Part shown: one piece after another, positions 33,001-42,000 of the stretch
Layout: every line of letters begins with the position of its first letter
Position numbering within the stretch: position 1 is the stretch's first letter
NCBI GenBank assembly: GCA_963921275.4
Contig: OZ001293.3
Coordinates: forward strand, 1,888,001-1,952,000
Length of the DNA stretch: 64,000 nucleotides
Reading direction: 5' to 3'
Source: an uncultured Hormoscilla sp.
Lineage (GTDB): Bacteria > Cyanobacteriota > Cyanobacteriia > Cyanobacteriales > Desertifilaceae
Position numbers: made by a program

Positions 33001-36000
33001 GTTCCTAAAATATAGTGAAGTAATATCTAGTCCTGAACTTTCTGCTTCTGATTTTTCGGTAAGCAATATTTTTCCTAACTCTCGATCGTCATTTACCTTG
33101 CTTAGAAACATATCTGCCTCATATTTTTTTATAATTGCATATGTTTCACCTGAGCAACTAAATTTCCCTTGTTGATATATATAGCATGATCGCATACCTT
33201 AAGAATTGGTTGAGGGTGGTCAGAAACCAGGATAAAAGTGACGCTATTTCTGCGTATTTCATATAACCGGCGATAACACTTAGCTCTAAACTTGATATCT
33301 CCCACCGATAATACTTCATCAATTAATAGAATATCTGGCTCTGTATGTATTGCACAGGCAAACCCCAACCGTGCCCTCATCCCAGAACTATAAGTCTGCA
33401 CTGGCGCATCGATCGCCTCTTCAATCTCGGCAAAATCTACAACTGCCTCAAACCGCGAGTCGATCTCTTGTGATGACAACCCCAAAATCGACATATTCAC
33501 ATAAATATTTTCTCTGCCTGTCAGGCACTGGTTCCGTTAAGTGTTTGGGGTCTTGCTGCTGAATTTAGGGAATTACAGAGCAGATCGTATGCTCAATAAT
33601 TGAGACCTTGATATTCCGGTTTCCAAGAGCCCTAACTTGACAGCAGGGACAACTTTAGTCGTGAAATGCACCGTACAAAGTTGTGGATGACCCAGAAGAA
33701 ATCCAGGGTTCTTTGGAGATGTTGACGAGACTTCGCATCGGTGTTGGTTTGGCGACGGAAAGCCGAATTTCGCCGTCGCATTCAGGCATTGAATCCCTCA
33801 ACATGGTTGGCATGAATCTCGTTTTCTACCACTTTCGTCTCTGTCTGAGGATGCTCAGGCACGGGAGCTTCATATTTCTTACGAGGACGACCCACTCGCT
33901 TCTTGGCTCCTTTATTCTTGAGTCTGACCCGTATTCCTTTAGGCAGAGGTTTGGGGGGACGACCGAGTTTGCCATCTCGGATCACCTCATGGCAAATGTC
34001 AAAGAGCAAATTACCATAACGCCGTTCCCCATCGGTAAACAGGCTAAGATCCTCGGTTTGCGAAATCACTTCAACCAAAGTATTTAAGGCTCGCTTAAAC
34101 AGTTGTTGGTCTTTCGAGCCACAGTGCAACTCCCACAAAAAACGACTGGGCGGTGTCTTCCGCGTACTCTTGTCCTGAAGGACAAGAGTACGCGGAAGAC
34201 GCCGGAGATCCCGACTAACAATCCTCCACCCTTGACTCAGAGCAGGCGGCTCATTTTTCTCCACCAATGTATAGAGTTCATCTCCTTCAATCATCAATTC
34301 TATAAACTGATGGAGCCAGGCAGAGAGCCTCAGAACTGGTTTGAGCTCCCCGAGACGGTCTTCCCAATCGATGACAGTTTTCTTGGAGACGTTAAAGGTT
34401 CGTGCGACTGCATTGAGACCCATCCCTTCACTCCTGGCTTTGAGAACTTGGATAATCCGACTTCAGGGAGTTCGTAGACCCGCTAAGTGGCCAAGGTTTC
34501 ACTGTAGTAAATGTCACACGCCTGGCAATGGTGGATGGTGCGGCTACCGTTGTGTTGAGTCTCATAATGGTGGTGAGGGTGTACCTCTTCACTCCCACAA
34601 CAGGGACAACACTGCGAGAATAGTTCCATAACACACCTCCAATTCCGGAAAAGTCTCAGCCTCTCTATGATCATCTATAATTCATAGAGGGCAAGCCTTT
34701 GGGCTATCCTGTTTAGCGGAACCAGTGCCGCCTGTCAAAATCGGATTAAATCCTGCTCCCAAGGCAATCAGTGGCGCTATCCTACCCCTTACCTTCACTG
34801 TACCAGTATCTGGCTTGATTAGACCACTAATAATTCTTAGCAGGGTAGTTTTCCCACTGCCATTCGGACCCACTAGCCCCAGTGCTTCTCCTCTACGAAG
34901 CTGAAAACCTACATTATTCACTGCCCAAAACTCTTGAGATCTTAGCCTGTCACTGTTTTTCCGAAGTCCTGTTAATTCCTTGGTAATGTCTTGAATGCCG
35001 TAGAAAAGAGAACTCTTCAAGTCCCGACAAAACTTTTTGGAGACTCCCGATAGTACCACTTCAGCCTCTTGAGACTTTTTAGTCACTTCTCTATCAGAAA
35101 CACTAATCATCAGGAACTCATCCTTTCTACTATAAAGGGCATTGCTAATCGGTAAACTACCCAGCTAACCAACAAACCACCCAAAGCGATACCACTGGCT
35201 ATCAAAAATCCCACTGAATCTGACACGACACCTCAGCCTAAGAATTGCGATCGGGCTCGATGTCCGCTTCTCGCAGTAATTGTTCTAAACGTTTAGCAAG
35301 TTGACGTTCCTGTTCAAGTTGTTCTGACACAATTTCCTTAGCCTGACGTTCTTCGAGCAATTCCTGCTGAACCCTTTGCAATTGCTGGTTCACTTGCAAA
35401 TAATCAGCAAACGGTTGACCCTCTGGACGATACAACACCAGGGTGTCCGATGACAGTTCAAAGCGAATTCCCAACCGAGGAGAAACCCAACCATTCATCT
35501 CATCAATCACATCTAACCAAGCATCAGAACGCGACCATCCCTTTAAGCTATTTTTCTTGGGATCGTAGAGATAGTATTCTTCCACCCCATAGCGATCGTA
35601 AAATAACAACTTCCAGTTCATTTCCTTAGTGGTATTCCCTGGAGAAAGAATCTCAAAGACCACTTGGGGGGCGATATGATTCTCTTTCCACTGTTTATAA
35701 GAACCTCGATCGCCTTTTTCGACACCAAACACTACCATTATATCCGGGGCTTGGCGCAATTTATTATTCCCTTCCACTGGATACCAAAGCAAATCTCCAG
35801 CCACGAAAACTTTACTGTTGTCGGCAAATAACCAAGCTAAATTGTAATAAATGACTGTAATCCAACGAAATTGAATGGTCTTATCTGCCATTGGTTGTCC
35901 ATCACTGTCAGGATAAATGATTTCGGCATCGGTTTGGGGCTGCAATTGTGTGACCATATTTAATTAACTCAATGTAGAATAGACTCATAGCACACCAAAA

Positions 36001-39000: not shown

Positions 39001-42000
39001 CCTAAAATTGCTCTATCGAGCAAAGGCTGACGCTGCGATGCGCGAGGGGTAGTGCGAGTAGCGCACCTCGAGTGCATCGCAAGGCTTGCAGCTACGTACA
39101 GCCAAAACGGTCCGGACTATTGTTATAGTAACTCAATGCCTTTTCTAGTTTCCCGCAAATGAAGCATTTAGACCAACCGAATGCGCCGACAGTATCACAA
39201 GAAAATTGCGTGATATAACATATTATCACCCATGTCAAGTGATACTGGCTTTCGATATCTCTGCCGGTGCTCTTGTCCCAGGGTCTATGGACAGCACACA
39301 GGAGACATCGGCGATAGGTACCCATGGCTGCGCCCCCAGCGCAGCGCTAGGTTGACAAGTGGCTGTACCGACGAGCGGGAGAGTGTAGTTGACAAGGCCT
39401 AATGGCCACGAAAATGGTGGTTATCAATGGTCAAGAAACTGGCAAGGGGGTTTGTAGAAATGGCCTGCTGTTTCCAGCAGTGAGACGAGAAGACTCGACT
39501 CGACTATCCCAGGAGTGCTTCTTAGATTTGGTTTACTACAACACTCTACAGGGTGGATAGCTTTCGGACCAACTCCCTTTTCAACTGGCTGTCGTAATAC
39601 ATATGTATTACGACATGACTGTATATGTTACATAGTGAATTATAAAAATTATTCTCAAAACTGTCCGGACTATTGTCTTATGCTAATCGCTTTTTTGCCA
39701 TCCTAAACGGGTTGGCTGTTGATAAACTCGCTTTAATGTGTTAACATCTCTAGCAGAAATCTCTGGAGGATAGCGCACCTGAGAAAAATACATGACATCC
39801 CTCTGGTCAGGAGAATGTCCCCATATTCCCAGAGCATGACCCATTTCGTGACGTGCCGTTGCTGTCGTGTACTCAGATGTCTGGTTCGGGCTTAACCAGA
39901 TAATAAACTTATGTGACAAAATCCCGGATGCATTATAATATAGCTCAAAGCGAGTTGACCCAGCCCGCACTCGACCTAACTCCCCGTTAGGGCCCAACTG
40001 CAACGGCGGATTTTTGCGCTTAACGATTATATCTGCCATTTCTTGCCGTTCTACTACCTTTAAGGGCAAATAAACTTGCCATTGGACTACCCCAAGCCAT
40101 ACCGCCTTTCGCCATTCTTGCCCGCGACCATCTCCCGATGATGAGTCTAGATAGATTTTAATCGGAAAGGACGACCATACTAGATAACCTACCTCGCTTG
40201 GCTGCACTCGCTCAAAATAATCGCCACTCTCTTTTTCCGAATGCCATTGGGCCAGACTGGGCGGTAGCGGATGGGCTACAAGAGGTGGTTTTGGTCCTTC
40301 TGTCGCCCGGAGACTATTGCTGGACAGATGCGGAAAATGACTGGCGATCGCTAGGATACAAGATGCGATCGCCACTCCTAAAATCAGCCATAACTGCCGC
40401 ATTAACCTAACCAGTTAGCGCTCAAAATCACGGTTAAGCCTATAAACATCACCGTCAGGGTCCAGGTAATGCGGTTGAGAGCAGTTTCGGCACTCTTAGT
40501 ACTGGTAAACAGTTGAGCTTGTCCGCCAATACCGCCGAGGCCATCTCCTTTAGGGCTATGCAGCAATACTAAGACGATCAAACCCACGGCCGACACGACC
40601 CAAATAATTTCTAGGATGTTGTTAACATTCATAGGTTAGTGGTTAGTTGTCAGTGGTTAGTGGTCAGTTGTCAGTGGTTAGTGGTCAGTTGTCAGTAGTT
40701 AGTGGTCAGTTGTCAGTTGTCTTAGAGGTGGTCAACCCACAACTGACAACCCACAACTGACAACTTACCGGGACAGTCGCACCGGAGAACGATTCTGTTG
40801 CACTTGATAGGCAGGTAATCGCAACATCGATTTACCTGTCATTTCCAAGGGCTGCGGTAGCCTTAAAATCTCCAGGATCGTCGGCGCGATGTCGGCTAAA
40901 CGACCATCACTCCTGAGACCGACTTCAGCCCCATGTCCTGGGATTTTTAGTCCTTCCCCTTCTATCAGGATAAACGGAACTGGGTTGGTTGTGTGAGCTG
41001 TCCAGGGGTTACCCGCAAAGTCAAGCATCAGTTCCGCATTGCCGTGGTCTGCTGTAATGATTACTGTTCCTCCTACTCGGTTGACTGTTTCCACTAGCTG
41101 TCCCAAACATCGATCTACTGTTTGTATGGCTTGGACTGCCGCTGGTTGTATGCCTGTGTGACCTACCATGTCCGGGTTGGCGTAGTTGATCGCTATCAGG
41201 GAGTATATCTGTTGGGCGATCGCAGCACAGGCTTCATCTGTTACTGCCGCTGCGGACATTTCCGGCGCTTGGTCGTATGTTGGCACTATCGGACTTTGGA
41301 CCAGATAGCGGTCCTCTCCAGGAAAGGGTTCCTCTAAACCGCCATTGAAGAAATAGGTCACGTGGGCGTACTTTTCCGTTTCTGCAGTTCTAAACTGTCG
41401 CAGTCCATGCTGGGCTATCACTTCTCCCAGAATATTACTCAGGTTCTGGGGTTCAAAGGCTACTAAGACTGGCAAACTCGGATCGTACTGGGTAAAGGTG
41501 ACAAAGGTCAAAGGCTCAAGAAGCTCTCGTTCAAACCCTGTAAACTCCCGGTCTACAAAGACTTGGGTCAGCTGTCGGGCCCTGTCTGGGCGGAAGTTAA
41601 AGAATACCACCCCGTCTCCGGGTTCCACTGCACCGGGGGCTATCCGCGTCGGCACCACGAACTCATCTGTCACTCCCCCATTATAGGAAGCCTGCAATAC
41701 CTCTACTGCGCTACCATCGCATCCTGGACCATCGGTAGTCATCAGGTCGTAGGCTTTTTGGATCCGGTCCCAGCGTTTGTCCCGGTCCATTGCATAGTAA
41801 CGACCGCTGAGGGTGACGATGCGCCCGACTCCGATTTTTTCTATATAGTCTTGAATGCGTCCGATCGCCTTCACGCCATCAGTAGGATAAGTATCCCTAC
41901 CATCGGTGATCGCGTGGATGCAAACCTGGGAAATCTCCTGAGCTGCTGCTATATCCAGCAGTCCCAATAAATGGTCCAGATGGGAATGTACGCCCCCTTC

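Follow-up and report, generated by a model that had tools for sequence, protein, structure and literature searches.

The window analysed here is a 64-kb stretch of the chromosome of an uncultured Hormoscilla (G000), and the features around the locus are collected in Table 1. The family set used for comparison comprises 14 genomes: G000 and its three sisters G002, G003 and G004, which together form the clade discussed below (filamentous, with genomes of 5-7 Mb); G001, an intact congener and the only one outside the clade; and G005-G013. Draft completeness is 94-97% for the three sisters, 93% for G001, and 98% for G011.

Table 1. Features at and around the site of the lost ssaD-ogdA operon (positions in the window).
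Feature	Position	Strand	Basis or remark
Remainder of wzt	about 32695-33500		Separated from the 5' part by an insertion
Insertion-sequence-like element, multi-copy, splitting wzt	~33524-34680		Raised contig depth over 33502-34837; putative IS label
wzt, 5' part (polysaccharide ABC exporter ATPase)	34682..35110	-	ORF; best NCBIfam family Wzt/RfbE, under cut-off
wzm permease, 3' stub (last 40 codons)	35113..35233	-	tblastn 85%, aa 246-285
Deletion junction	35233..35238	.	Loss of ssaD and ogdA, of most of wzm and of any cluster downstream
Uma2-family putative endonuclease	35238..35957	-	Pfam PF05685
Broken CHAT-TPR gene	36027..38850	-	Pfam CHAT and TPR
Matrixin-like peptidase (g02246), first right-flank gene	39683..40402	-	Pfam PF00413 at cut-off; synteny
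secG	40402..40632	-	TIGR00810 above cut-off
gpmI	40765..42363	-	TIGR01307 above cut-off

The preliminary description had taken the whole interval 35110-39683, between wzt/wzm and the g02246-secG-gpmI block, as the place where a two-gene operon, ssaD-ogdA, was lost. The right flank is as described: in G005 the order is wzt-wzm-ssaD-ogdA-peptidase-secG-gpmI, in G001 gpmI shares a contig with the intact operon, and in G004 it lies 2.5 kb from an SsaD remnant. The left flank holds only through the 121-bp wzm stub, which is shared with G002 and G004; the wzt of the window is not the best match of the wzt of G005. The stub is single-copy in G000, with 89% DNA identity to the wzm ends of G004 and G002, and because a complete wzm stands next to the SsaD remnants in both of these genomes, we take it to be the left edge of the deletion. 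Most of the interval, by contrast, is not a scar of the loss. The CHAT-TPR stretch has 83-88% DNA identity to G001 C158:32482-35116, where the intact gene (1091 aa) directly precedes the peptidase and lies some 24 kb downstream of ogdA; the gene is ancestral. Fragments of the Uma2 gene stand at this position in both G002 and G004; the G001 contig stretch has no match to it.

It is hardly credible that the pair is present in the organism and was left unassembled or binned away. The incompleteness of the sister drafts, the 570 contigs of the G003 assembly and the foreign contigs held in the bins speak for such an artefact, but the G000 chromosome is a single 6.88-Mb contig with no N, contigs from two more samples span the junction, and in G004 the deleted SsaD lies within one contig, between wzm and gpmI. 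In run X4, one contig covers 34684-38455 with 0 differences, and in run X2 a contig covers 34684-35295; a contig of run X5 begins to match at 35235, with 344 letters to the left unaligned. Metagenome runs with a share of <0.2 (n = 10) were left out of the analysis. For G000 and G004 the artefact has already been largely refuted.

The missing genes had been named as 2-oxoglutarate decarboxylase (OgdA) and a dehydrogenase (SsaD) of succinic semialdehyde (SSA), and tests on the G001 genes indicate that this naming is correct. In G001 the two genes form one operon; they encode a ThDP enzyme of the PRK08322 type, with 870 bits against a cut-off of 509, and an SSADH. Its SsaD matches PDB 3VZ3, the SSADH of PCC 7002 (PMC7510979), with E 1e-197; its top PDB matches are cyanobacterial SSADHs (E 5e-199), and its best NCBIfam family, PRK09406, is reached with 694 bits, under the curated cut-off of 730. 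The published SSADH residues are the catalytic C262/E228, the SSA-binding W135/R139/S420 and the NADP determinants K154/S157, together with W130, N131, S207 and E360 (PMC7510979); all 11 are found in G001 SsaD with identical numbering. For OgdA we used the MaKGD pocket (E50, Q254, V382, H385, K386, A408, M410, GDGG, D462, Y465, L467, K471, and Y531) as given in PMC10418658, which describes an enzyme with KGD activity. Compared by residue numbers alone, G001 OgdA has 16 of 17 KGD residues at a fixed offset, Q254 being shifted by one position. In all four annotated loci (4/4) ogdA adjoins ssaD, and OgdA is found in 127 of 134 genomes of the same order. With its ThDP enzyme, its SSADH and the published active-site residues, the G001 operon resembles the OgdA/SsaD bypass of Synechococcus sp. 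PCC 7002 (SynPCC7002_A2770/A2771; PMC5160925); the clade differs from that system in that the operon is deleted or fragmented.

Full-length OgdA and SsaD are present in 10 of the 10 other family genomes and in none of the four of the clade, as had been claimed, and the loss is real. The accompanying statement that tblastn finds no remnant is true of G000, where neither tblastn (word size 2, E up to 10) nor blastn (word size 7) gave any trace of ssaD or ogdA, but it fails for G002, G003 and G004, all of which have remnants. Genome-wide tblastn in G000 gave as best matches IlvB (34%) and an unrelated aldehyde dehydrogenase (27%), neither with the substrate-binding residues of OgdA/SsaD; W135, R139 and S420 are missing from the latter. 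Within the window no match to either protein was better than E 0.22. Two other candidates were rejected: a TPP-enzyme N-terminal fragment at C1:1637 kb, whose nearest relative is MenD (42%), and further broken aldehyde-dehydrogenase pieces in G002-G004, which are putA remnants. In the metagenomes, the best of the 80 loci kept for an intact clade-type SsaD had 77% identity, among the matches listed.

The central claim, that the TCA cycle of G000 is open, agrees with the remainder of the pathway. Genome searches did not find sucA, aceB, gadA, mdh, sucC, sucD or Mqo. The only SucB match is the AceF locus, i.e. E2 of pyruvate dehydrogenase, and no OGDH was found; the GABA shunt was not found either (no gadA, and the one PF00282 match is a tyrosine-decarboxylase-like PLP decarboxylase), nor was the glyoxylate shunt (no aceB, and the AceA-like ORF is PrpB/PEP-mutase-like). 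As a glyoxylate or methylcitrate enzyme, this ORF is under all NCBIfam cut-offs (best prpB, 274 of 354); a second GltA-like ORF is likewise under all cut-offs and is not its neighbour, and a methylcitrate/glyoxylate route was rejected. Judged by gene content, then, none of OGDH, the GABA shunt and the glyoxylate shunt was found in G000 as another way from 2-oxoglutarate to succinate. MDH is missing across the genus; the cycle already lacks it in G001, outside the clade. What G000 keeps is SDH, fumarase and malic enzyme, together with one aa3-type oxidase and no cytochrome bd. The frames of sdhA, sdhB and fumC are open, with dN/dS of 0.14-0.21, 0.05-0.30 and 0.10-0.15, which means purifying selection; relaxed selection as a cause of the odd sdhA tree is ruled out by the first of these values.

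SDH retained under such selection could mean that the shunt had become redundant, the step from 2-oxoglutarate to succinate being carried by an expanded set of Fe(II)/2-oxoglutarate dioxygenases of the TauD family (secondary metabolism) or by MenD, acting on the side, together with the aldehyde dehydrogenase that remains. MenD is intact in G000, and KGD activity has been ascribed to MenD. The four genomes of the clade have 7, 11, 7 and 10 TauD-family matches (not copy numbers), G001 has 4, and the remaining nine have 0-3. We nevertheless regard such a replacement as unlikely. The best TauD match is under the TauD cut-off (246 of 313) and sits among biosynthetic-type genes, G001 already has its four matches, the flux through dioxygenases is tied to scarce co-substrates, and the aldehyde dehydrogenase is the one without SSA-binding residues. 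Moreover, SDH is present in the free-living S. elongatus 7942, a precedent for SDH without the shunt. The lack of the shunt in that strain has been described (PMC3369817).

Each of the three sisters keeps a different piece of the operon: SsaD aa 9-118, SsaD aa 215-383 or OgdA aa 450-526. Protein identity is 88-94% for most pieces and 69% for one, and dN/dS against G001 is 0.06, 0.17 and 0.17 (0.15 for gpmI), where roughly 0.5, an estimate from branch lengths, would be expected had the genes been dead along the entire stem. Because the remnants differ in each sister and their dN/dS is this low, the loss appears to be recent, with separate deletions. Relaxed selection along the remnant branches was also tried: these carry more amino-acid changes (11 vs 5), but with gpmI as the reference the difference does not reach significance (p = 0.36). 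One inactivation and several are indistinguishable from the remnants, since these do not overlap. A 2-bp lesion in G002 may be an assembly error, because frameshifts are numerous in that genome, gpmI and ilvB among them. Outside the clade, G302 has stops in both genes, a case of parallel decay; the broken operon of G018 was not counted, as its frameshifts come without internal stops and may be sequencing errors.

We favour, with a probability of about 75%, a drift-type erosion that left the pathway branched and SDH dependent on succinate from other sources. The clade ancestor had an intact ssaD-ogdA between the polysaccharide-export cluster and peptidase-secG-gpmI, since G001, G005 and the remnants show it there. 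Shortly before or during the radiation of the clade, the operon would have ceased to be maintained, and in each lineage different deletions and insertions then erased it, with four different end states as the outcome. An oxidative arm (PEPC, citrate synthase, aconitase and ICD, all present as genes) would stop at 2-oxoglutarate, for nitrogen assimilation, and a separate tail of SDH, fumarase and malic enzyme would recycle fumarate from arginine and purine synthesis and take in succinate supplied by Fe/2-OG dioxygenases, by NadB or by import. In a phototroph restricted to its host, selection would probably have been relaxed and IS elements would have driven the erosion; one element, IS5-like, is present in 36 copies. 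Selection may be relaxed because the shunt would contribute little to respiration, to judge from PCC 7002 knock-outs, which showed "little or no respiratory deficiency" (PMC5160925). The loss would not be free of cost, since the same mutants needed 3.6-3.8 h to double, compared with 3.2 h, and in one of them respiration was 23% lower (PMC5160925).

Losses of sucCD, cydAB, putA and vte1 would belong to the same general erosion rather than to one targeted programme. As had been stated, sucCD is absent here and present in the other Hormoscilla, G000 being the exception among the 14 family genomes (13/14); it went together with at least five neighbouring genes, and the deletion junction could not be placed, the G004 flanks not being common to G001 or G002. 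For cydA (0/4 in the clade, present in G001) and tocopherol cyclase (absent in G000, broken in G002-G004), the losses stand, but not their description as symbiont-only: cydA was also not found in G011, nor the cyclase in any of the seven genomes of genus g3.

An adaptive loss, in which a block of 2-oxoglutarate oxidation and of cytochrome bd would spare fixed carbon for export to the host or keep 2-oxoglutarate high for ammonium assimilation, with succinate from host or microbiome through a TRAP transporter, seems to us quite improbable. The four separate end states and the decay in G302 would suit it, DctP (TRAP transporter) is present in G000, and the same idea was put forward for diazoplasts (PMC10103950). 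However, DctP is likewise present in G001, with no expansion; the losses occur in blocks with unrelated neighbours, a sigma factor included; many unrelated genes (putA, lhgD, CHAT-TPR, wzm/wzt) decay alike; and 27 of 251 genomes of the order, taken irrespective of lifestyle, gave no SsaD.

That cyanobacteria can live with a branched pathway is not new, and the finding is to that extent less surprising: the state occurs in Prochlorococcus, marine Synechococcus and S. elongatus PCC 7942 (PMC3369817, PMC5160925), which, like G000, have neither OGDH nor OgdA/SsaD and retain the oxidative arm to 2-oxoglutarate and fumarase. There the losses are old and the genomes small and free-living, whereas here the loss appears recent, in large filamentous genomes, with remnants visible and SDH and malic enzyme intact. 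The diazoplasts of Epithemia/Rhopalodia are also host-associated cyanobacteria with an incomplete TCA cycle, for which 2-oxoglutarate accumulation was proposed (PMC10103950), but they do not photosynthesise, and many of their TCA genes are gone, whereas the clade lost the shunt and MDH and kept the rest. MDH occurs in only 66 of 130 cyanobacteria, and a malic-enzyme-dependent TCA cycle has been described (PMC9765476); G001 fits it, with the shunt, SDH, fumarase, malic enzyme and no MDH found, whereas the clade has its malic-enzyme tail and has lost the link that feeds it.

The sponge-dwelling habit ascribed to G000 is doubtful, because a mitochondrion of ascidian type (ascidian code) was co-assembled with it. 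The sponge label is probably wrong and the source seems to be a sea squirt; a stretch near-identical to that of G000 was found in a run labelled sponge metagenome. The ascidian-type mitochondrion suggests that the clade is not confined to sponges. The link of the loss to symbiosis rests on a single evolutionary contrast, since there is one clade and one intact congener. We would give little credence to the fuller picture of a large-genome photosymbiont clade over sponge and ascidian hosts in which four or more lineages, each through deletions of its own, opened the TCA cycle, and which kept SDH because succinate from expanded Fe/2-OG dioxygenases or the host replaced the shunt as the feed of dark respiration.

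In the literature searched, which left most subscription journals, figures and bioRxiv supplements out of scope, the loss was not reported for Hormoscilla, and it is apparently unreported for this clade. A published gap analysis took S. elongatus 7942 as its yardstick (PMC6520454), and because that strain also has no shunt, the loss was invisible to it; a later paper described TCA enzymes as common to all groups (PMC7313196). The corrected metabolic picture has no shunt, no MDH, no cytochrome bd and a single oxidase of the aa3 type. Hormoscilla symbionts have so far resisted cultivation, and a supply of succinate or dicarboxylates is a testable lead. The graded remnants, finally, form a natural series for the decay of a central-metabolism operon.

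The two-gene shunt that closes the cyanobacterial TCA cycle, ssaD (SSA dehydrogenase) and ogdA (2-oxoglutarate decarboxylase), is a known dispensable bypass, and its loss from the clade formed by our genome (G000) and its congeners G002, G003, and G004 is real, recent, and lineage-specific. As the preliminary description had stated, the whole pair is absent from these four genomes (0/4) and present in the ten others, being full-length in the congeneric G001 and in 9/9 other family genomes (G005–G013). That description had worried that the pair was named without a named model, a doubt that residue matches and a PRK08322 hit largely lift. 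For the G001 aldehyde dehydrogenase, the matching structures are cyanobacterial SSADHs (E 5e-199), including 3VZ3, the PCC 7002 enzyme (PMC7510979). The protein carries 11/11 residues named for SSADH in that paper; its PRK09406 score (694) is under the cut-off of 730. The G001 ThDP enzyme passes the PRK08322 cut-off of 509 with a score of 870 and has 16 of 17 Microcystis KGD pocket residues listed in PMC10418658, the 17th being displaced by one position.

It had also been claimed that no remnant survives. This holds for G000, in which no remnant of SsaD or OgdA was found, but each of the other three genomes retains a piece: SsaD residues 9–118, truncated beside transposase-like ORFs, in G002; OgdA residues 450–526 in G003; and SsaD residues 215 to ~383, with the 5' half and promoter deleted, in G004. 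In both G002 and G004, a whole wzm is followed by a stub of G001's own wzm, with an identical breakpoint, and then by the SsaD remnant; the gpmI of G004 comes 2.5 kb further on. Because the wzm stub of G000 (see the table) is the end of the wzm adjoining these remnants, the lesion in G000 lies at the junction at ~35233–35238. Within the proposed interval, 36027–38850 holds the broken CHAT-TPR gene, and the window's wzt is not the best match of the wzt of G005, another family member. Among four of the 16 listed sequencing runs that were compared, an X4 contig covers 34684–38455 with 0 differences and X2 likewise bridges the junction; both runs may stem from the same study as the assembly itself, so they rule out misassembly without amounting to independent populations.

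Features discussed in the text (window coordinates unless a contig or locus is given)
Feature	Location	Remark
wzm stub	35113-35233	final 40 codons of the wzm that is whole in G002/G004; single copy in G000
Broken CHAT-TPR gene	36027-38850	intact in G001, between operon and peptidase
G001 pair	L034:5180-6547 and 6755-8392	aldehyde dehydrogenase, then ThDP enzyme
Animal mitochondrial genome	G000:C3:1-31420 (L243)	15 kb, doubled; 17.6% GC; AGR read as Gly (ascidian code); binned with the cyanobacterium
Decayed operon, G302	C2:852154-855236 (L155)	stops in both genes
putA remnants, G002-G004	L044:4313-4925, L045, L046
lhgD-like gene, G000	C1:528521-531999 (L115)	interrupted by 2.3-kb insertion
Dioxygenase cluster	G000:C1:2411126-2420200 (L137)

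When did the operon die? Compared with G001, the remnants give dS of 0.26–0.50 and dN/dS of 0.17, 0.06, and 0.17 (the G003 figure takes in a misaligned tail); the gpmI values are 0.35 and 0.15. The gpmI-block tree places G000 as sister to G002–G004 (support 100), with a clade stem (0.068) much longer than the tips (0.002–0.005). Because a gene dead along this whole stem would have an estimated dN/dS of ~0.5, against 0.06–0.17 in the remnants, inactivation came late. For amino-acid changes on the remnant branches (11 versus 5), the difference from gpmI was not significant (p = 0.36). Each remnant preserves a different piece, so most of the operon was still present in the ancestor of G002–G004. 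Four different end states arose in the clade, compatible with one or several inactivations. The long stem is not repeated in the sdhA tree, so recombination may blur the branching order. In sdhA and fumC (L088-L092, L130-L134), dS is 0.06–0.18 within the clade and 0.13–0.19 to G001, with patchy identity; in sdhB, the clade is tighter (0.03–0.06) and farther from G001 (0.33–0.37), a pattern that suggests recombination between lineages.

The habitat label “sponge-dwelling”, like the others taken from the preliminary description, probably does not fit G000. The cox1 of its mitochondrial contig scores 478 bits with NCBI table 13 (ascidian), 433 with table 5, and 397 with table 4; 39 of its 41 AGR codons align to bacterial CtaD, 24 of them to Gly, one to Ser, and one to Arg; and the contig has tRNAs with anticodons tct and tat, which we take to be tunicate traits. 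For these reasons the sample most likely was, or contained, an ascidian holobiont, pointing to a tunicate host. A run labelled sponge metagenome contains 35235–36854 with 21 differences and 7 gaps, so close kin occur with sponges too, and “animal-hosted clade” is the safer wording. G000 consists of 7 contigs, of which C1 measures 6.88 Mb and contains no N. Megablast gave no match to C1 for C2, C4, C5, C6, or C7. ORFs of ≥200 aa are lacking in C2, C4, and C7; judged by eye, C6 resembles a phage or plasmid, and C5 an endogenous eukaryotic-virus (Polinton-like) element.

Two further losses had been called symbiont-only, and neither is. cydA is present in 9/14 family genomes, missing from G011 as well as from the clade; the similarity of G000 to G001 stops at the cydA start. 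G001, G005, and G007 carry a whole tocopherol cyclase and G002–G004 a broken one; none was found in G000 or in 7/7 genomes of genus g3.

What remains in G000 includes gltA, acnB, icd, fumC, malic enzyme, ppc, nadB, argD, sdhA, sdhB, menD, a candidate SDH anchor (a CCG-domain protein), one aa3-type oxidase, and one DctP, all stop-free over the matched stretch. Searches of G000 for sucA, sucC, sucD, aceB, gadA, mdh, cydA, cydB, putA, and Mqo found none, and the substrate-binding residues are missing from its remaining IlvB and aldehyde dehydrogenase. Purifying selection acts on sdhA, sdhB, and fumC in 5/5 genus genomes. MDH/LDH (PF00056) occurs in 9/9 other family genomes and 0/5 of the genus, where Mqo was not found either; the cycle of G001, with the pair but without MDH/LDH, would therefore already be of the malic-enzyme type (PMC9765476). 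The loss of sucCD from G000 takes in five or more adjacent genes, an ECF sigma factor among them, and no deletion junction was located for this block. sucC of G001–G004 (L119-L121, L061) has a raised dN/dS (0.32–0.42), possibly relaxing ahead of loss. No full-length putA frame was seen in G001. The lhgD-like L-2-hydroxyglutarate dehydrogenase gene, interrupted in G000, lies directly upstream of ssaD in G006.

OgdA occurs in 127/134 genomes of the order (summed from a family tally) and 144/401 phylum-wide; SsaD occurs in 224/251 order genomes, those without it falling in at least nine families. In genus g8 of another family, the same operon has decayed in parallel in G302 and shows frameshifts in G018 (L154). 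The pair is missing from Prochlorococcus, Synechococcus 7803, and S. elongatus 7942 (PMC3369817), many TCA genes are missing from diazoplasts (PMC10103950), and PCC 7002 mutants in this bypass are viable with a small effect on respiration (PMC5160925). For Hormoscilla, the genus name given in the preliminary description, PMC6520454 used S. elongatus 7942 for comparison, with no mention of the TCA cycle found in the portions of its text and supplements seen (figures apart), and PMC7313196 gives TCA enzymes as shared. No report of the loss in Hormoscilla was found in the literature searched, again figures apart, including PMC8225149, PMC9298193, and PMC8074062, covered in part, by term.

To the gene content, remnants, junction, and selection on SDH and fumarase observed here, we add a proposed reading. 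The oxidative arm would stop at 2-oxoglutarate, and a separate tail would recycle fumarate and salvage succinate. The cause would be relaxed selection plus IS-driven deletion (one IS5-like element is present in 36 copies). TauD-family matches number 7–11 per clade genome, 4 in G001, and 0–3 in other family genomes; on these counts, succinate made by dioxygenases is a fair lead, no more, as a possible feed for SDH. One G000 cluster (L137), which looks biosynthetic, groups TauD-family dioxygenases with an FkbM methyltransferase, a probable transporter, and a citrate-synthase/citryl-CoA-lyase-like gene.
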